A DNA stretch of 64,000 nucleotides from Vulcanimicrobiales bacterium (GTDB taxonomy: Bacteria > Vulcanimicrobiota > Vulcanimicrobiia > Vulcanimicrobiales > Vulcanimicrobiaceae). The stretch spans positions 96,001 to 160,000 of the forward strand of contig JBBRLI010000001.1 of the NCBI GenBank assembly GCA_038231455.1. Reading direction: 5' to 3'. Made by a program: the position numbers and the translations under genes. Shown here one piece after another: positions 6,320-53,828 of this stretch (position 1 is its first letter; every line of letters begins with the position of its first letter). The notes below the pieces were generated by a model. It did not search any database, was not told the origin of the DNA, and worked only from the letters and a program-made list of their open reading frames with translations.

Positions 6320-6349
6320 TGGTCAAAATCCTTCAAACCAGCATCCTTT

Positions 6350-6739
6350 GCGCGCTCCCAAGATTCTCTCGCAGAACGATCCGGAGTTTCTCGACCAACC
6401 ATCTCGAGAATCGAACGAGGCATCGCCGACGACGTCGGAATCGACGTGGTCCAACGACTTGCCGACGGACTCGGTGTCGCCGTTTCTGAACTCTTCATTC
6501 TCGAAAGCGCAGAAGTTGTGGACGACGCTGAACTCGCTCGGCGTGCCGCAGACGATGACGACGCATTTATTGATTCCGACGCTCTCTCTGCTGCCATCGA
6601 TGAAGCAACCGGAACACCAATCGAACGATACTCCGCTGCTGGGCGTCCAGCCGTGGGTCGTTACATTTCACCCAAAAGTAGCCAAAGAAATAACTCGACC
6701 GGGCCTGTCCGACTCAGCATTTCGACCGACGATTGGTGA
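6350..6739 (+). pseudogene. XRE/Cro-type HTH protein (antitoxin-like), 5'-truncated
   Basis: In-frame SQDSLAERSGVSRPTISRIERG..DVGIDVVQRLADGLGVAVSELF. No start codon lies between the in-frame TAG at 6308 and the HTH, and helix 1 is missing. Confidence 0.7.
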
Positions 6740-6944
6740 CTTGCTCGAACGTCTGAAGAACGATCCCAAGCAATTCGCGAAGAAAAATGGCGATCTAAGC
6801 AGCGCTCGCGCAGCCGAAGCAGCTTTCAACGACGGCGTCGTTTGGCGGGGTGGTTTCACACTTGACGAAAAAAGGCGGACCGTGAAAATCATCTCGTTCG
6901 GCCCGCACGATCGCGCCTATGCGCAAGCGAAGCGCCGTCTCTAG
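6600..6944 (+). CDS. RelE/ParE-like toxin (start uncertain)
   Basis: WVVTFHPKVAKEI...LERLKNDP....K..GDL....WR....DE....VKIISFGPHD.AY matches the RelE-superfamily layout; overlaps the XRE gene. Confidence 0.6.
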   Translation: MKQPEHQSNDTPLLGVQPWVVTFHPKVAKEITRPGLSDSAFRPTIGDLLERLKNDPKQFAKKNGDLSSARAAEAAFNDGVVWRGGFTLDEKRRTVKIISFGPHDRAYAQAKRRL

Positions 6945-6973: not shown

Positions 6974-7738
6974 TTACTTGCTCGTGTCCATCCGGTGACT
7001 CTTCAGAATCGCAGCAGCCTCGGATCCGGCGATGTAGGCGGCGAAAGCCTTCGCCGCCGAACTATGGGCCGACGCCTTGACCGCCGCGACCATCGTAGGA
7101 ACGGTAACGAGGTCCTCGGCGGTCAGCTTGATCATCGAAAGTTTGGCCGGATCGATATTTGATTCGTAGAGAATCGCGGCATCAGCCGTTCCGCTTTCGA
7201 CCATTTCGGTTACTTTGGCGGTGTCGTTCTTTTTACCGACGACGTTCGCTTCGTACTTGGTTCCGAAGTCTTTGCCGTAATGCGCGGTCATCTTCTCGAC
7301 GACTTGCGCTTCCCACGTGCCGGTCGTCGTGCCGGGGCTGCCTTCGGCGATTTTCACGCCCGGTTTCATCAAATCTTTTGCTTCTTTGATCTTGCCCGCT
7401 GCCGATTTATTGACACCGATCGCGGCTCTATTCGTGTAGACGTGCACCGGCGAATCGAGCCCACCGCCACTTGCGGCGATCGCGGGCTCCGCGATGAGCA
7501 CGATGTCTGCAGCCGAGCCGCTCGCGACCGTTTTTGCGATAACGTTACTGCCAACGTAGCTCGCACTTACGGAGATATCGGGATGAGACTTTTCATAGGC
7601 GGCGATGATGTCGGTGAAAGGTGCCTTTGCGTTCGATGCGACGAGCGCGACGAGCGTCGTTTTGTCGGCGGCAAAGGCCGTGCCGCTAAGCGCGAACACA
7701 AATGCCAGAGAAGCCGCGCTATAAAGACGGAAGTTCAT
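6974..7738 (-). CDS. ModA-like oxyanion substrate-binding protein, copy 1
   Basis: Signal peptide (AFA-A); ModA-like segments (YEKSHPD.....[36 protein letters not shown]). Confidence 0.8.
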   Translation of the reverse strand: MNFRLYSAASLAFVFALSGTAFAADKTTLVALVASNAKAPFTDIIAAYEKSHPDISVSASYVGSNVIAKTVASGSAADIVLIAEPAIAASGGGLDSPVHVYTNRAAIGVNKSAAGKIKEAKDLMKPGVKIAEGSPGTTTGTWEAQVVEKMTAHYGKDFGTKYEANVVGKKNDTAKVTEMVESGTADAAILYESNIDPAKLSMIKLTAEDLVTVPTMVAAVKASAHSSAAKAFAAYIAGSEAAAILKSHRMDTSK

Positions 7739-7803
7739 AGTGAGAATCCTTTTCGGATTCGAGCACCCGATCTCGAGAGATGAGGGGACGGGACGTAAAC
7801 GCG

Positions 7804-9870
7804 CTAGGCGTAGGACGTGGTGAGTTCCGGAATTTCGACGTAGTGATCGAAAGCGATGGTTTCGTCGGCGAGGAGCGCGCGCGCATCGTGTTCGTTGCTC
7901 GAGACTTGGAATGCGGCAACGAGTTCGCTCAGGCTTGCCGCCTGTTCGCGCAGTGAGGATGCGGTTGCATCGATCTCTTGGATTTGGGCGGCGAGTTCGG
8001 CGGTTGACGCCGAGACTTCGTCGGCCTTGGCCGATTGATCGATGGCAGCCGCGGCGACCGGGCGCAGGATGTCCGAGACGTTGTCCGTGGTGGACTGCAT
8101 CTCGCCGGCACCGGCGGCGTTTTGCTCGACAACAGCGGAAACGCTGCCGACGTTTTGGGTGAGCGTATCGCTCGTTACGCGCATGCGGCGCGCGCGCTCT
8201 GCGAGATCGTCGGCGACGTCGCGCGTCCGGCCGATAGCGCCCGCGACGACGCCAAGCGAACTGGTCGCCTTACCGGCGAGCGTGCGTCCTTCGGTCATCG
8301 CAGAAGTCGAAGCACTCATTGCGCGAGCCACGTTGGCAGTTTCGGCGCGAATGGCCGTAAGGATACCCGAGATTTCACGCGTCGAGACTGCCGAGCGTTC
8401 TGCGAGTTTACGAACTTCATCGGCGACGACGGCGAAGCCGCGGCCGTGTTCGCCCGCACGTGCGGCTTCGATTGCGGCGTTGAGCGCGAGCAGGTTTGTC
8501 TGATCGGCAATGTCTTCGATCGCGTTGAGAATCTCGACGACGGCATCCGAGCGCTGCTCGAGCGTCTGCATCGCAGCACTTGCAGCTTCCGATTGCTTTT
8601 GTAGGCGTTCCATTGCGTGCTCGGTTTGTGAGACGGCCTCGCCGCCGCTTTTCGCTTCTTCGTTTGCTGCGCGAGCGGCCTCGGAGAGCGCATCGCCCAG
8701 GCCCACGAGCGAGCGGAGTTCTTCGTTGAGTTCTTGCACGGCGATCGCGGAGGCGGCAACGGCCGTCGCCTGATCGACGGAGCCTTGCGCGATTTGCGTC
8801 GCGACACGGGTGAGTTGCTCGAGGGCTTCGCCGCCGCGTCGGCCGCGGTCGGCGGTATCGCGCGCACCGTGCGCGACGGTCAGCATCGCTTGCGAGATGC
8901 CTTCCACGGCGGTGCCGCTATGCGCGGTCGCCGTCGAAACTTCGGTACTGGCGATGAGCACGTTATTCGCGGTGAGCGCGACCGAACCGACGAGATCGCG
9001 CAACTTGAACGTTGCGGCACGATATTCGCGGGCGGTGTTGCCGAGTTCGGTTGCGAGACGATTGAAGTTGGTGGAGAGTTGCGCGATCTCGTCCGTCCCG
9101 GACATCACGATCGGCTTTGGTTCGAGTTCGAGCGTCGAACGCAGGTCACCGGCCGCAAGATCTTTGAAGGCCGACGAGAGCGCGGCGAATTCGTGTTCGA
9201 CGATCGAGCGCAGACCTTCACTGAGGATACGCAGGCGACGGGAGAGCGACATACTTAAGAAGATCGCAAAAGCGGTTCCAAGGATTACCGCGATGACTCC
9301 TAGGGTGATAAACGTGATTCGGGAGCGATCTTGCTGCGCGACCAAGCCCGTAAAGAGATCGTTGAAAAGCGCCGGCGTGCCGATCGATCCGTCATCGACG
9401 TACGGACCGACCTTTTGATATTCATCGACGAGGCCTTTGAGTTTTTGCAATCCGGCGACGGCGCCCGGATGGTTGCCCGCTTGAGCAACTTTCAGGACGG
9501 CATCGAATTGTGATTCGACAGCGGTAAGCTGCGGCTCAGCTTCATCCGTCCATTTTTTGAAGATCGGGTGATTCGAACCGAAGATTTTGAGCGCCGTCAG
9601 ATCTTCGTCGAGACGCGTGCGCGCCGCATCCATCTCGTCGAGATATTTTTTGTCGCCCGTCGCTACGAAACCGCGCAGCGCTGACTCGACAAGGACCACT
9701 TGCAGCACGGAGTCGCGAGTCTCACGCGTACTCGGGATGGTCTGCATGATGGTCTTGGTTTGAGCGAGCGACTGAACGATCGAGGTTGTCGAGAGAATCG
9801 CCTGTGCGACGATCAAGATCACGCACACGCCAAACCCGACGCCCAGTTTCGCAGCGATGGGCCAACGCAT
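7804..9870 (-). CDS. Methyl-accepting chemotaxis protein with CHASE3-like periplasmic domain
   Basis: Two TM segments; [55 protein letters not shown]. Confidence 0.95.
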
Positions 9871-9871
9871 C

Positions 9872-10645
9872 TTAGTTTGCGACCTCGTGATGGTGCGACT
9901 TGAAGATCGCGGCAGCTTCGGGGCCTGCGATGAATTTTGCGAAGTCTTTCGCCTGAGCGCCGTGGGCCGAGGCTTTTACCGAAGCGACTACTGCAGGAAC
10001 GACGACTTCGTCTTCACCGGTGAGCTTGACCATGATCAGTTTGCTCGGGTCGATATCGGCTTCATAGAGGATTGCGGCATCGGCCGCACCGCTCTCGACA
10101 GCGTCCGCGACTTTCGTGGTGTCCGTTTTTTTGGTGGCGACGTTGGCTTCATACTTGGTACCGAAGTCGGCTCCGTAGTGCGCCGTCATCTTCGCGACGG
10201 CTGCGGCCTCGAAGGTGGCGACGGTAGAACCAGGGGTGCCCTCAGCAATACGGATGCCTTGCTTGGCAAGGTCCTTTGCTTCTTTGACCTTCGCCGACGA
10301 CGCCTTATTCACGCCGATTGCCGTGCGATTGCGAAAGATGACGACCGGTGAATCAAGCCCACCGTTTGTACCGGCGACGTTCGGCTGTGCCATCACGACA
10401 ACGTCGGCGGCTGCACCGCTAGCGATCTCGCCCGCGATGATCTTGCTGCCCGCGAAGCTCGGCGAAATCGTCACATCGGGATGGCTTTTTTCGTAGGCCT
10501 TCACGATATCGGCAAACGCGGTCTTTGCGTTGGGAGCGACGAGCGCGACGAGCGTTGTCTTGTCGGCTGCTTTGGCGCCCGTGCCCGAAGCAATGAGAAG
10601 GGAGACCGCACTCATAACGAGCGCGCCCAATTGAGCGGTTTTCAC
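9872..10645 (-). CDS. ModA-like oxyanion substrate-binding protein, copy 2
   Basis: Close paralog of 6974-7738 (shared [36 protein letters not shown]); GTG start with AAGGA SD. Confidence 0.8.
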
Positions 10646-10706
10646 AGTTTTCGTCCTTACAAAGTGAGCATGCCTACGGTCTAACGACCGGCGGCCTTCT
10701 CTGGGT

Positions 10707-10733
10707 GTATCGGCAGAAGAGACAAGCGCTTGA
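10707..10733 (-). promoter_or_regulatory. Sigma-28 (FliA/SigD)-type promoter
   Basis: Minus strand TCAAG-N14-GCCGATAC (TCAA-N15-GCCGATAC), about 60 nt upstream of the modA-MCP-modA operon. Confidence 0.75.
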
Positions 10734-10756: not shown

Positions 10757-11545
10757 TTAATTTTCCGTTACATACCCTGGGGCCCCTAAACGGGTCGAAA
10801 GAGAAGCGGCAAGCTCTTTCACGCGCGCGACCGTTTCGCTTCTTTTCGGCGATTCGAACTCGACGCTGACCAGGCTGATCGCGACCGCCGCGATGGCGTG
10901 CCGCCCCGCGGCATCGAACACCGGCGCGCCAATGCAGCACATCCCGGCACGCGTCTCTTCGCGGTCCTCGGCGTATCCACGTTCGCGCGCTACGACCAGA
11001 TCCGCGAGGAGCTTCTGGGTTGAGGTGATACTGTGGTCGGTCAGCGCTGGGAGCGTCGGCCCAAAGCGATCGAGCACGTCGGCCGCGGGCATGGTCGCCA
11101 GGAGCGCCTTCCCACTCGCCGTGCACGTCGCGGGGAGGCGCATCCCGATCCGGTAGTTGAGCGAGAGCCCGTGCGACCCGTTGCGGCACGCCACGTAGAC
11201 CACGTCACGGCCGTCCAGCACCGCGAGGAGCACGGTGTCCTCGAGCATTGGCGCGAGCGACTCAAAGGATGCCACGAATTCACTCGTGAGGTCGGCCTTC
11301 GCTAAATAGGCATGCGCGAGGTCCACAAGTCGAACGCCGAGTTGGTACGCGCCGTCGGGCCGCCGGGCGAGCAATCCGCCATGCACCAACGTGGCGCAGA
11401 TTCCGAGTACGGTACTTTTCGGAAATCCGACGCGAGCGGTGAGCGCAGCAAGGGAAAGCGGCTCGCTCGATGCGGCCAGGGCATCCAGCACGACGATCGC
11501 ACGTTCCAGCGCAGGGACGCTACCTTTCGGCTTCGTTGACATCAT
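10757..11545 (-). CDS. IclR-family transcriptional regulator
   Basis: [39 protein letters not shown] effector domain. Confidence 0.93.
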
Positions 11546-33733: not shown

Positions 33734-35830
33734 TTACGCGCTTGCGGCGAGCACCCTCATGCCATTCCCGTTTGCCGAAAAGATTGCGGGCTGCTCGAGC
33801 TGGGTGGGGACCTCGGGCGCAGCGGCCGTTGTCTCGAACACCGAAACCAGATCCGTTAGGCTTGCCGCTTGCGCGCTGAGCTGGTGCGCGGTTGCGTCCA
33901 TCTCTTGCACCTGAGCAGCCAGCTCCGCGGTGGATGCCGACACGTCGTCGGCAGCACGTGCCTGACGTTCGGAGAGTTCGGCGATCGGGACGATCATCGT
34001 CATCACCGAATGCGAGGTGCCCTGCATCTGGCGAGCTGCCGTTGCGTTCTCTTCGACGATCGCCGAGACACTCGACATATCGCGATTGAGCGTGGAGCTG
34101 GCGTTCTGCATGACGACCGAACGTGCTGCCACGTCTTCTGCGACAACCGTTGTCTGCGCGATCGCATCGCCGACGTTCGCAAGCGCGGTCGTTGCACGAT
34201 TAGCGAGTTGGAGTCCATCTTCCATCACGCCGGTCGATCCGCGCATCGCATCGGCTGCCGCAGCGGTTTCTTTCTGAATCGCCGAGAGGATGCCGGAGAT
34301 CTCGCGCGTCGATTGACTCGACCGTTCGGCGAGCTTACGCACTTCATCGGCGACGACCGCGAAACCGCGGCCGTGCTCGCCGGCGCGCGCCGCCTCGATC
34401 GCTGCGTTGAGCGCAAGCAGATTGGTTTGATCGGCAATATCTTCGATCGCGCCGACGATCTCTCCGACGGCAGCCGAGCGCTGTTCGAGCACCGACATCG
34501 CGGCGGTCACGTTGGTCGTCGCTTCGCGCAGACGCGCCATCGCATCGGCGGTTTGGCGCACGGCCTCCGAGCCCGCGCCGGCCTCGGAAGTTGCATGGCG
34601 TGCCCGCTCCGCAAGCGACGTGCCGTGCTCGGCGAGCGAGGCGATTTCCCCATCGAGTCGGTCGACCGCTGAGACCGCCGACTGAACGGACTGCATTTGA
34701 TCGGCCGCACCTTGCGCGATCTGCTGTGCGACCCGTGAGAGTTCTTCGACCGCCGTTGTCGCATCACCAACTTGACGCGCTTGTTCGCGCGCGCCGTCGG
34801 CGACGCCCGAGACCGCATGCGAGATGTGTTCGACCGCCGCGCGCGCTTCGCCGGATGAATTCGAGACGTGGCTGCTAGCGCTGGTGAGTTCTTTTGAGGT
34901 ATTGGCAACGCCGTAGATTAGGCGGCCAAGCTGTCCCGTCGTACCGCTGAATTCCGTTGAGATCGACTGCAGACCGTGCGTGAGTTCGTTGTAACTGCGC
35001 GCGAGGTCGCCGATCTCGTCGGCCGCCATCGCCGGCATCGGTTCGCTCTGCGTCGTAAACGACGCCGTGAGCCGTCCGGCGGCAAGATCGGCAAAGGCCC
35101 GCGAGAGCGAGCCGAAATCTTCATTCACTACGCGTCCAAGCGCCGCGGTGACCGCACGCAGGCGGCTCGAGATCGAACGGGCGATCAGGAAGCCGACGAC
35201 GATGGTAACGACGAGTGCGATGCCGATAAAAATAGCGATCGCAAAACGCGCCATGTCGGCGGCGTGTGAAAACGCACTCGCAGCATCGCTCGCAGAAGAT
35301 TCGAGCGTCTTACTCATCTCTTCGAGCGCCGTATCGAGGTGTGCTGCGTCTTTTGAATTATCGGCAAGCAACTTCTTGGTGATCGATGCGCGTCCGTTCG
35401 CCAGTCCGCGGTAGCCGTCGACGACGGCTGTGTCGTCTGTATTGACTTCTCCGACGATTTCGATATTGCGATTGTTGATATTTCCGGCGAGTGTCGTCGC
35501 GGTCGTGACCGTCTCGGGCAAGCCTTTGATCCCCGCCCCGTGTTCTTTGAGATAGATCAAATCATCGGCCGAATCGGTTCGCGCCGACGCCATGACTTTC
35601 AGATGGTTGGGCTTCTGGGTGAGCACGTAACCGCGCGTGCCGAAGCGATCCAGGTACGCTTGTAAGCGGAGGTCGTTCAAGCGATATTTCAAGTCCGAGA
35701 CCGAACTCAAGACGGTTTTCGCTTGGAACATCGTCGCGATCTGCGAAATCGCGATCACACCCACGATGATGAGCAAGAGCACCGGTACCGCGAAGGCCAG
35801 GGTCAGTTGGCCGCCGATTTTTAAGCGCAT
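33734..35830 (-). CDS. Methyl-accepting chemotaxis protein
   Basis: Two TM segments, HAMP, canonical signalling hairpin; same architecture as 7804-9870. Confidence 0.95.
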
Positions 35831-51720: not shown

Positions 51721-52781
51721 TTACGAGAGGAGGGCGGGGCCAGCGGTGAGATCCGGCGCTTTCCCGCCGTGTTGCTCGACCCAGTGACACGCTGCTTGAT
51801 GGCCGCGTTCGTACTCGATGAACTCCGGCACTTCGGTTTTGCAGCGGTCGAACGCGACGGGGCAGCGCGTGTGAAAACGGCAGCCCGAGGGCGGATTGAC
51901 CGGTGAGGGAATGTCGCCGCTGAGGATAATCCGTTTGCGTCGGCCTTCGATTGCGGGGTTCGGGATCGGGATTGCCGAGAGCAGCGCCTGCGTGTAGGGG
52001 TGCAAGGGGTTGGCGTAGAGCTGATTGCGGTCGGCGATCTCGACGATCTTGCCGACGTACATCACGGCGATCCGGTTCGAGATATGGCGCACGACCGAGA
52101 GATCATGGGCGATGAAGAGGTAGGTCAGCCCAAGCTTCTGCTGCAGATCCTGAAGCAAGTTGATAACCTGCGCTTGGATCGAAACGTCGAGCGCCGAGAC
52201 CGGCTCATCGCAGACGATGAACTTTGGATCGACGGCAAGCGCACGGGCGATACCGATGCGCTGGCGCTGCCCCCCCGAAAATTCGTGGGGATAGCGATTG
52301 GCGTGATACGGCTGTAAGCCGACGATCCGGAGCAACTCTTGGGCGCGGGCCTCGGCGGCTTTGCCTGTTGCGATTTTGTGAATGCCGAGCGGCTCACGGA
52401 TGATATCGCCGACGGTCATGCGCGGGTTCAGCGATGCATACGGATCCTGGAAGATGATCTGCATCTCTTTGCGCAGCGACCGCAGTTCCGTGCTGCCCAT
52501 CGCGCCGACATTGCGGCCTTCGAAGAGAACATCGCCTTTGGTCGCGGGCGTGAGCTGGAGAATAACGCGGCCGACCGTGGTTTTTCCCGAGCCGGATTCG
52601 CCGACCAGGCCCAACGTCTCGCCGCGTTTGATGCCGAACGAAATGCCGTCGATCGCTTTGACATCGCCGACGTGGCGCGAGAAAATGCCGGCGTTGATCG
52701 GAAAATATTTGTAGAGGCCGCGGACTTGAACCAGCTCATCGGTCGCGGGCACGACGCTCTCTGGCGGGCTTGCGAACTGCG

Positions 52782-52785
<4 letters not shown>
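51721..52785 (-). CDS. oppF: Oligopeptide/dipeptide ABC transporter ATPase (OppF/DppF type)
   Basis: [41 protein letters not shown]. Confidence 0.92.

Positions 52786-53828
<1,043 letters not shown>

Follow-up and report, generated by a model that had tools for sequence, protein, structure and literature searches.

Two ModA-fold binding proteins flank a CHASE3-type chemoreceptor in Eremiobacterota: a candidate binding-protein-dependent chemosensory locus

The locus and its gene products

In a flagellated soil or sediment bacterium of the little-known and almost uncultured phylum Eremiobacterota, three open reading frames follow one another on the minus strand in the order SBP1, MCP, SBP2, and code for two periplasmic binding proteins (SBPs) and a chemoreceptor (MCP). 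They were studied within the window, by which we mean the whole stretch of 64,000 nucleotides that was analysed (G000:C1:96001-160000), and their coordinates are as follows.

10708-10733, minus strand: candidate sigma-28-like promoter, TCAA-N15-GCCGATA, an exact match 63 nt before the SBP1 start
9872-10645, minus strand: SBP1 (P0001), 257 aa, GTG start, secreted ModA-fold SBP (SBP_bac_11, 104.4 bits)
7804-9870, minus strand: MCP (P0002), 688 aa, with TM1, CHASE3-type bundle, TM2, HAMP and signalling domain (Pfam)
7739-7803, minus strand: MCP-SBP2 spacer, 65 nt, with AAAGGA ahead of the ATG (sequence inspection)
6974-7738, minus strand: SBP2 (P0003), 254 aa, paralogue of SBP1 (SBP_bac_11, 116.7 bits)

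The preliminary description of two paralogous SBPs on either side of a CHASE3-like MCP, all on one strand, agrees with both the reading frames and the Pfam domains, and the one-nucleotide gap that it reported was read at the SBP1/MCP junction, where a single base separates the SBP1 stop codon from the MCP ATG (TAA-G-ATG). No terminator-like site was found on the minus strand in the 65-nt gap between MCP and SBP2, and the three genes probably form one transcript.

Both SBPs belong to the SBP_bac_11 family (PF13531), with scores well over the Pfam gathering cut-off of 25 bits, and they are 65% identical to each other (153/237). The label 'ModA-like' applies to them in a loose sense only, as with 53.5 bits (SBP1) and 47.3 bits (SBP2) they score under the cut-off of the ModA equivalog TIGR01256 (62.5 bits); they were the sole matches when the whole genome was searched with the ModA model, again under the cut-off. 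The SBP1 signal peptide ends in AKA, followed by ADKTT, and by sequence inspection lacks a lipobox Cys. The AF2 model of SBP1 (pLDDT 89.5) is a complete two-lobe class II PBP fold, with 7tav, ModA, PEB3, AcfC and Sbp as best fold matches (Foldseek E 2e-16 for 7tav; 1e-15 to 1e-12 for ModA, PEB3, WtpA and Sbp). At the sequence level the SBPs match ModA/YvgL-like chains (E 1e-15) and, far less well, PEB3 (E about 3e-4), with no match to AcfC; ModA is their nearest solved relative. In a tree of 45 rows (L030, with no tblastn match at 1e-5, is absent from it), SBP2 sequences form a clade (SH-aLRT 100) sister to that of SBP1, and both branch near ModAs of the phylum that are linked to modB.

The oxyanion in E. 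coli ModA is held by what we take to be Ser12, Ser39, the Ala125 and Val152 NH groups, and Tyr170. On that numbering, alignment shows the Ser39 equivalent retained in the main SBP clade, and the Tyr170 equivalent to be Tyr in the clade of the window and Phe or Leu in three further loci (G194a, G350a, G191) and in a second clade; the Ser12 equivalent is Asn in the SBPs, as it is in two of eight modB-linked ModAs. Binding loops 3 and 4 of the SBPs (GTPGS, KKTD) are remodelled relative to those of the modB-linked ModAs (VPxG, NV(K/E)), which are also without the conserved lysines that the SBPs carry. Because these loops differ from their counterparts in the phylum's modB-linked ModAs, kinship with ModA does not point to the ligand.

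The receptor matches the Pfam models CHASE3 (32.6 bits, cut-off 28; model positions 4-107 of 138), HAMP (32.6 bits) and MCPsignal (137.4 bits). By sequence inspection, two hydrophobic stretches, near residues 5-27 and 185-207, flank a periplasmic CHASE3-type four-helix bundle (residues ~30-184), an organisation that identifies the protein as an MCP. The model of the sensor domain (pLDDT 83.4, five helices) gave no match at E <= 0.001 by Foldseek alone, its clear matches coming from VIA-align only, with a Z of 15.3 against 3va9 (rmsd 2.0, 125 residues aligned), 15.2 against LytS-N (5xsd_L), 13.0 against TorS and 12.5-12.7 against Tar/Tsr, where, for helical bundles, values under about 13 may mean only a common arrangement. 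The Pfam score and the bundle fold place the domain in the CHASE3/4HB_MCP superfamily. The sensor bundles of LytS, TorS and Tar dock SBPs, and LytS-N has been solved with XylFII and TorS with TorT.

Recurrence of the gene pair and its surroundings

An SBP gene directly upstream of an orthologous MCP gene was found at ten distinct loci of the phylum (the window, G001 (= L038), L089/L090, G194a (= L093), G350a, G161, G191, G377, G194b and G350b), across which identity to SBP1 falls from 79% to 27.5% and sensor-domain identity from 89% to 24%; this co-divergence adds little beyond the linkage itself, because adjacent genes have a common history. Among 30 loci retrieved with the sensor domain, the best nine (E <= 1.6e-18) all have an SBP, and the remaining 21 have none within 1.5 kb. 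The junctions range from an overlap of about 20 nt to a gap of 4 nt, on our assignment of start codons, and two genomes (G194 and G350) hold two pairs apiece. At every related locus, the copy kept ahead of the MCP is that represented by SBP1; SBP2 occurs downstream only in the clade of the window itself, where it is also present in G001/L038 and L089/L090. Against a role tied to the MCP, partial versions of the arrangement exist as well: L092 has a close family member (46-53% identity) without an MCP, between an amidohydrolase gene and ogt/dnaE, and in L091 the SBP is followed by no more of the MCP than 31 residues of its N-terminus.

Within the flanks examined, tblastn detected neither an ABC ATPase nor a ModB-like permease beside the ten loci, with the exception of L093, where an OpuA-type system lies 3.5 kb off, past an opposed ppk gene; some flanks were short (2.2 kb in L206, 4.9 kb in L238), and those of L094 (1.8 kb) and L095 (1.1 kb) are too short to judge. 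The window itself has no match to the ModB model, and its only ABC ATPases (51721-53828) are of the Opp/Dpp type with oligo_HPY domains, in accordance with the reported absence of modB and modC from this stretch. The SBP and MCP pair without modBC in the flanks examined, which had been proposed as a subject for a neighbourhood survey, does recur in the phylum.

Gene fusions were sought with a profile of the SBPs (17,682 proteins at E <= 0.001), and ten longer proteins among the best 150 representatives were scanned for domains. Four combined ABC_tran with the SBP, five the SBP with Oxidored_molyb, and one consisted of the SBP alone; an MCP, kinase or GGDEF domain was present in none of these ten, so that there is no Rosetta-stone support.

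The docking of an SBP on the sensor that the preliminary description envisaged was modelled for SBP1. The prediction for the sensor dimer plus SBP1 reached an ipSAE of 0.47 (0.32, 0.60 and 0.47 in individual runs) against 0.01 for the best of three controls, which is graded as weak support and falls in a score band that is wrong more often than right unless the pairing is already likely. Partner pLDDT was at least 89, and at least 51% of contacts were common to the runs. On calibration, 58 of 80 solved complexes reached the mark, as did 2 of 110 mismatched pairs, and scores of 0.60 or less belonged to only seven of those 80 solved complexes plus both passing mismatches.

A proposed private adaptor for the receptor, and the alternatives

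The explanation that we favour, and hold to be reasonably probable, is that of a binding-protein-dependent chemoreceptor with private SBP adaptors. Both SBPs would be exported to the periplasm, where each would close on a small, probably anionic, ligand; the loaded SBP would dock on the membrane-distal part of the sensor dimer formed by the four-helix bundles, and the signal would cross TM2 and HAMP, reach the signalling domain and from there feed the CheA and flagellar pathway of the genome. By analogy with RBP and GBP for Trg, a single receptor would probably gain two ligand specificities from the pair of paralogues. The SBPs would descend from ModA-type transport proteins and now be without transporter company. 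The earlier proposal of dedicated adaptors for the MCP is thus sustained by the conserved tight linkage, the lack of ABC parts in the flanks examined, a genome with neither ModB nor ModC over cut-off, the bundle sensor and the weak support from the predicted complex, whereas its ligand side is not carried along with it.

In its most specific form, the proposal would describe a first dedicated trace-metal-oxyanion chemosensory system, in which cells, by means of ModA-derived SBPs that have ceased to feed a transporter, swim up molybdate or tungstate gradients, paralogues might tell Mo from W, and taxis serves cofactor-metal foraging. We consider this fairly unlikely; if true, it would provide the first receptor for cofactor-metal taxis. 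No molybdate or tungstate taxis receptor appears in Table 1 of PMC8050422 or Table 2 of PMC10443332, and a literature search found none; in Pseudomonas aeruginosa, metal oxoanions elicit moderate taxis, to which no receptor is assigned (PMC6829864, section 2.10).

The alternative that survives best is dual use or pure transport, in which the SBPs feed an oxyanion (molybdate or tungstate) to an unlinked permease and an unlinked ATPase, and either also signal to the MCP, in the manner of MBP and PstS, or merely adjoin it. The genome does need Mo or W, since it makes molybdenum cofactor (MoaA, 389 bits), and model searches recovered no ModB or ModC over cut-off anywhere in it; canonical modABC is absent. 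It also codes for a WtpB/ModB-like permease that has neither an SBP nor an ATPase as neighbour, and most of the bacterial SBPs known to work on chemoreceptors belong to transporters (PMC8050422, section 2). In addition, the SBPs branch close to ModAs that, at 23-30% identity to them, adjoin ModB-like genes elsewhere in the phylum. Yet, of 36 genomes belonging to the family, 31 have orthologues of the permease and only 8 a match to the SBP query, a distribution independent of the SBPs that does not support the permease as their partner. Two WtpA-like SBPs encoded elsewhere in the genome fit the WtpB-like permease better by family, and these proteins, judged from sequence, are other candidates for Mo/W uptake. 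With no ABC gene next to any of the ten pairs within the flanks examined, and binding loops 3 and 4 unlike those of the modB-linked ModAs, we regard the dual-use or pure transport explanation as unlikely.

A decidedly unlikely alternative accepts the SBP as partner of the MCP, acting not as a shuttle for a taxis ligand but as a constitutive co-receptor or stabiliser, or else the MCP has an output other than motility. The pocket altered relative to ModA would fit this, as would the frameshifted MCP of the relative G377 and a second, partial CheA match on contig C77. However, the SBP is modelled with high confidence as a complete two-lobe binding protein, the Ser and mostly also the Tyr at what we take to be the ModA ligand positions are retained in the main clade, and the sole full CheA of the genome lies in the flagellar cluster, beside FlhA.

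The private-adaptor explanation includes a transcript that possibly starts from a sigma-28-type promoter. The sigma-28 (FliA) consensus is TAAA/TCAA-N15-GCCGATAA, and the near-consensus site noted earlier upstream of SBP1 does exist: TCAA-N15-GCCGATAC at 10708-10733 (minus strand) is the sole match in the window, against 0.07 expected by chance, and 7 of 100 shuffled windows had at least one match. The genome codes for FliA (263.8 bits, cut-off 189.6), and its motility and envelope set comprises 14 MCP-domain matches, five flagellins over cut-off and a BamA-like protein. Two promoter blocks, ACTCAAGCG and TTCTGCCGA, do not vary among three orthologous loci, the spacer being variable and L089 having GCCGACC, and the motif is missing before the more distant SBP-MCP pairs. 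Genome-wide, T[AC]AA-N14-16-GCCGATA occurs 11 times against about 10 on a rough estimate from 814 GCCGATA sites, and TCAA-N14-16-GCCGATA was not found at 10/11 or better around the 14 MCP-domain and five flagellin matches. GCCGATA, as a -10 element with TAAC or TTAAG as the -35-like element, precedes one flagellin gene (C6) and, downstream of flhA, one PilZ gene (C9). A relaxed pattern, TCAA-N14-16-[GA]CCGA[TAC], gave 282 genome matches, mostly within long ORFs, and was uninformative. The assignment of a sigma-28 promoter from the motif is plausible; the control by sigma-28 that had been claimed is in keeping with the presence of FliA and the blocks kept in three loci, but not with the lack of a genome-wide excess and of the motif at other MCP genes. 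That the gene order arose by neutral accident within a single lineage, with the sigma-28-like site as a chance match, would suit the motif count at chance level and the lack of matches before other MCP and flagellin genes, but it is highly improbable given a linkage that persists at about 27-40% SBP identity with genes overlapping or nearly abutting, two genomes with two pairs apiece, and promoter blocks kept in three loci despite the variable spacer.

Relation to known binding-protein-dependent receptors

In the compilation of Matilla et al. 2021, most bacterial SBPs known to stimulate chemoreceptors are encoded alongside transporter genes, and it is sensor kinases that typically have dedicated SBPs (PMC8050422). 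The locus family described here offers a clean and conserved bacterial case of an SBP gene translationally coupled to a chemoreceptor gene with no adjoining transporter, and would illustrate how signalling can recruit a transport protein in nature. A screen of the soluble SBP, instead of a membrane protein, provides an easy handle on the ligand of an opaque CHASE3-type receptor. The locus also gives a first glimpse of what a flagellated bacterium from this almost uncultured phylum steers for.

The view in the preliminary description that such a layout is not known from any described system is not supported. In the Vibrio cholerae TCP island, acfB codes for an MCP and acfC, in the same polycistronic operon, for a probably sulfate-binding periplasmic protein; chemotaxis is affected by acfC, and AcfB and AcfC have been suggested to interact (PMC5976639). 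The likeness to our locus lies in MCP and periplasmic SBP genes placed together, AcfC (4jb7) also being a fold match of SBP1 at rank 20, and the differences in an MCP gene that comes first, a single SBP and another phylum. AcfC groups with PEB3/Paa, whereas the SBPs of the window are closer by sequence to ModA/YvgL-like proteins, and the two loci probably have independent origins. The second precedent is archaeal: in Halobacterium salinarum, the SBP genes of BasB/BasT and CosB/CosT lie with signalling-protein genes, and the SBPs stimulate the transducers BasT and CosT (PMC8050422, Table 1). Like SBP1 and SBP2, BasB and CosB are associated with signalling rather than transporter genes, but they are Peripla_BP_6/OpuAC proteins and their transducers have dCache-like sensors.

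In the classical cases, Tar-MBP, Trg-RBP/GBP and Tap-DppA, and in CtpL-PstS of P. aeruginosa, the loaded SBP stimulates a TarH or HBM helical bundle, and Trg is one receptor served by two SBPs (PMC8050422, Table 1). The SBP genes of these E. coli and P. aeruginosa systems lie with ABC transporter genes, uptake coming first (PMC8050422), whereas those of the window are without transporter genes. Helicobacter pylori TlpB-AibB joins a ModA-family SBP (IPR005950) to a chemoreceptor (PMC8050422, Table 1), but AibB is transporter-associated with AI-2 as ligand, and the TlpB sensor is sCache_2. ModA of modABC shares fold and Pfam family with the SBPs of the window, which differ from it in scoring under the equivalog cut-off, in having no adjoining modBC and in their altered binding loops.

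Dedicated SBPs encoded with a signalling partner are known from HptA-HptS, XylFII-LytS, TorT-TorS and GlnH-GlnX, HptA being itself an SBP_bac_11 protein (PMC8050422, Table 1); GlnX has a CHASE3-like periplasmic bundle and is proposed to bind GlnH (PMC9769921). The output of these pairs is a kinase, whereas that of our locus is a chemoreceptor, the sensor of which has LytS-N and TorS among its best fold matches.

Organization of the locus and its candidate promoter

The preliminary description placed two ModA-like solute-binding proteins (SBP1 and SBP2) on either side of a chemoreceptor (MCP) on one strand, an arrangement confirmed by the minus-strand ORFs and their Pfam domains. The source assembly comprises 3.7 Mb in 106 contigs (93.7% complete), and the locus reads as follows.

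Genes of the locus, in window coordinates
10757-11545, minus strand: IclR-type regulator, upstream neighbour of SBP1 on the same strand
9872-10645, minus strand: SBP1, 257 aa; SBP_bac_11, 104.4 bits
7804-9870, minus strand: MCP, 688 aa; CHASE3 (32.6 bits, cut-off 28), HAMP and MCPsignal
6974-7738, minus strand: SBP2, 254 aa; SBP_bac_11, 116.7 bits

SBP1 and SBP2 share 65% identity, and both carry, as read from the sequence, a Sec-type signal peptide ending in A-x-A ahead of ADKTT, with no lipobox cysteine found on inspection of either. A BamA-like gene in the genome suggests that the host may possess a periplasm. One base separates the SBP1 stop codon from the MCP ATG, and the 65-nt spacer between MCP and SBP2 holds no terminator-like site on the minus strand. 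Downstream of SBP2 lie a fatty-acid oxidation cluster and a convergent ORF (6348-6944, plus strand) whose C-terminal 67 residues match a ParE-like toxin domain (24.1 bits, under the 28-bit cut-off). A second MCP signalling domain occurs in the window at about 34058-34603 (contig positions G000:C1:130058-130603, minus strand; 135.7 bits).

The proposed sigma-28 promoter upstream of SBP1 is an exact TCAA-N15-GCCGATA, expected 0.07 times per window, and FliA is encoded in the genome. Three orthologous loci share the blocks ACTCAAGCG and TTCTGCCGA unchanged around a spacer that varies, and a weaker version was read by eye in the metagenome contig L091. A GCCGATA -10 with a TAAC or TTAAG -35-like element also precedes a flagellin gene and a PilZ gene located just after flhA, beside cheA. 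However, the genome shows no excess of such sites, the 11 matches to a loose pattern being close to a rough chance estimate from 814 GCCGATA sites; no match of at least 10/11 lies near the 14 MCP-domain or 5 flagellin hits, and the motif is absent from the distant SBP-MCP loci. We regard the sigma-28 assignment of this candidate site as evenly balanced. Outside this locus, a single exact intergenic TCAA-N15-GCCGATA occurs in the genome, ahead of a gene for a 949-aa PAS-GAF-SpoIIE phosphatase (G000:C46:6878-9818).

Conservation of the SBP-MCP linkage

Close relatives of the SBPs are few (in the length band covered by the search, 29 clusters at E <= 1e-5), and with one genome per species a close copy was found in one record only, at 84% identity, the next best reaching 28-30%. 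Relatives on metagenome contigs share 74% (L089/L090), 57% (L091), 46% (L092) and 44% (L093) identity, besides short pieces. By tblastn, the order SBP1-MCP-SBP2 recurs in L038 and L089/L090, and SBP-MCP in L093; L092 holds an SBP without an MCP. In L091 (7116-7980), only the first 31 MCP codons (71% identical) stand between an SBP1-like gene (57-62% identity) and unrelated sequence beyond; this truncated MCP is either a relic or the result of a break in the assembly.

The sensor domain (MCP residues 1-215), searched against 401 genomes of the phylum Eremiobacterota at E <= 1e-8, was matched in 26 of them. The search yielded 30 loci: in each of the nine best (E <= 1.6e-18) an SBP_bac_11 gene is directly upstream, and the remaining 21 have no SBP gene within 1.5 kb. 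With L038 and G001:C23 counted once, as were L093 and G194:C4 (same tblastn figures), ten distinct loci carry an SBP gene followed by an orthologous MCP: the window, G001, L089/L090, G194a, G350a, G161, G191, G377, G194b and G350b, where a and b denote two pairs in one genome. Counts for this search and for the 36-genome family include genomes flagged as unpublished, G048, G059, G361, G020, G022, G029 and G030, none of which contributes to the ten loci. Across the ten loci, identity falls to 27.5% for the SBP (relative to SBP1) and to 24% for the sensor, and the SBP-MCP junctions range from an overlap of about 20 nt to a gap of 4 nt (start codons inferred). The second, downstream SBP is confined to the window's own clade. 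In the larger flanks examined, tblastn detected no ABC ATPase or ModB-like permease, except in L093, where an OpuA-type system lies beyond an opposed ppk gene. The G377 MCP (L236:6744-8723, G377:C8) produces matches split over three reading frames and a nonsense alignment beyond about residue 360, which indicates a frameshift, due to pseudogenization or sequencing error.

Transport genes, ancestry and ligand of the binding proteins

The label ModA-like holds at the level of the SBP_bac_11 family, but SBP1 and SBP2, the only matches to the ModA equivalog model in the whole genome, reach 53.5 and 47.3 bits, short of the model's 62.5-bit cut-off. The absence of modBC from the window was correctly described, since all ABC ATPases there are of Opp/Dpp type. 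Genome-wide, neither ModB (best 134.6 against 182.6) nor ModC (best 184.2 against 285) exceeded its cut-off. The top ModC match is a PotA/PhnT-like ATPase located next to one SBP of phosphonate type and to SBPs of SsuA type; the top ModB match is a WtpB/ModB-like permease (G000:C1:414069-414827; L012:6070-6828) with no SBP or ATPase gene adjoining, flanked by genes for a response regulator and a proline dehydrogenase.

The MCP-linked SBPs might instead serve transport as partners of this unlinked permease. Molybdenum cofactor is synthesized, as MoaA (389 bits) shows, so Mo or W must be imported. Yet permease orthologues occur in 31 of the 36 genomes of the family (49-57% identity) and the SBP query matched just eight, while a pair of WtpA-like SBPs, each at about 150 bits and so under the cut-off, lie on other contigs, at G000:C31:1430-2689 and on G000:C32 (L260:4838-5809); this mismatch and these other candidate partners make such a pairing less likely. 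The WtpA-like genes lie apart from any ABC genes, next to CbbX/ComB-like and PanE genes, and together with the lone permease look like a scattered Wtp-type system.

In a tree of 45 SBP rows (quick IQ-TREE run, with SH-aLRT as the sole support measure and a midpoint root used just for drawing), the SBP1 and SBP2 clades are sisters inside a 16-row group (support 99), and their duplication is therefore recent. This group is nested in a 29-row clade (support 99) to which the majority of MCP-linked SBPs belong; a second clade with MCP linkage (G377, G194b, G350b; support 100) falls among ModAs adjoining ModB-like genes. By this placement, the MCP-linked SBPs are descendants of transport ModAs or closely akin to them. 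The longer relatives agree with this, carrying an ABC ATPase or molybdopterin-oxidoreductase domain as a fusion; of ten scanned, none was fused to a signalling domain. Public examples are ABC ATPase-SBP proteins (P0069, P0078, P0105, P0176) and SBP_bac_11-Oxidored_molyb proteins (P0173, P0083, P0139, P0152, P0140). A third clade adjoins MFS transporter genes, an unusual pairing in which the SBP_bac_11 gene lies directly downstream (L014:1471-3569 in G014; L015:1480-3654 in G011).

The SBP1 structure model (pLDDT 89.5) matches the folds of a YvgL-like protein, ModA, PEB3, AcfC, WtpA and a sulfate-binding protein. The MCP-linked SBPs were aligned with modB-linked ModAs of the phylum, using E. 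coli ModA numbering (Ser12, Ser39, Tyr170). The Ser39 equivalent is kept in the main MCP-linked clade; that of Tyr170 is Tyr in the window clade and Phe or Leu in G194a, G350a, G191 and the second clade; the Ser12 position is Asn, as in two of eight modB-linked ModAs. Loops 3 and 4 have been remodelled, with GTPGS and KKTD in place of VPxG and NV(K/E), and lysines are conserved in NAK and KKTD. Differences between SBP1 and SBP2 loops are clade-consistent and would fit two specificities. Solved SBP_bac_11 ligands covered in PMC10443332 are mostly molybdate and tungstate, and also sulfate, phosphate and phosphorylated metabolites. An anionic ligand for SBP1 and SBP2 is a reasonable conjecture; there is no specific support for molybdate.

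Sensor domain, predicted docking and known systems

The MCP sensor was modelled as five helices (pLDDT 83.4). Foldseek returned nothing at E <= 0.001.

VIA-align Z of known domains to the MCP sensor model (values under about 13 are common among helical bundles)
3va9, histidine kinase HK9 sensor domain: 15.3
LytS-N, solved with the SBP XylFII: 15.2
PcaY, chemoreceptor ligand-binding domain: 14.2
MCP2201, chemoreceptor ligand-binding domain: 14.1
TorS, solved with the SBP TorT: 13.0
Tsr, chemoreceptor ligand-binding domain: 12.7
Tar, chemoreceptor ligand-binding domain: 12.5

Predicted complexes of the sensor dimer with SBP1 scored 0.32, 0.60 and 0.47, with partner pLDDT of at least 89 and at least 51% of contacts common between runs. 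The median of 0.47 stands against 0.01 for the best control, but falls in the weak-support band of a calibration in which 58/80 solved complexes and 2/110 mismatched pairs reached the mark, scores of 0.60 or less occurring in only 7/80 solved complexes and in both passing mismatches; our job, with its own alignments and three chains, was set up unlike that calibration. The proposal that the SBPs are dedicated ligand adaptors for the MCP is upheld in part: the linkage is conserved and an adaptor role is rather probable; the support does not extend to molybdate in particular.

SBP-mediated chemoreception is well established for Tar-MBP, Trg-RBP/GBP, Tap-DppA and CtpL-PstS. As outlined in a 2021 review (PMC8050422), SBP genes for chemoreceptors mostly lie with transporter genes, and those for sensor kinases with signalling genes; BasB/BasT and CosB/CosT of Halobacterium are tabulated there as associated with signalling-protein genes, and AibB, of the ModA family, and HptA, an SBP_bac_11 protein, are listed as working with TlpB and the kinase HptS, respectively. 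No molybdate or tungstate chemoreceptor was found in the literature searched: Table 2 of PMC10443332 lists arsenite and chromate as the sole oxoanions with receptors, and the moderate taxis of P. aeruginosa to metal oxoanions is described in PMC6829864 with no receptor assigned. The V. cholerae MCP gene acfB shares an operon with acfC, which follows it; the product of acfC, periplasmic and described as probably sulfate-binding, affects chemotaxis to mucin, and a role together with AcfB has been suggested (PMC5976639). Because of acfB-acfC and the tabulated BasB/BasT and CosB/CosT cases, the layout has precedents, and the statement that no such system had been described was wrong. Relative to the literature searched, three features are new: a CHASE3-type MCP is paired with a ModA-derived SBP, no transporter genes accompany the pair throughout an entire conserved SBP-MCP family of Eremiobacterota, and one MCP is flanked by two paralogous SBPs.
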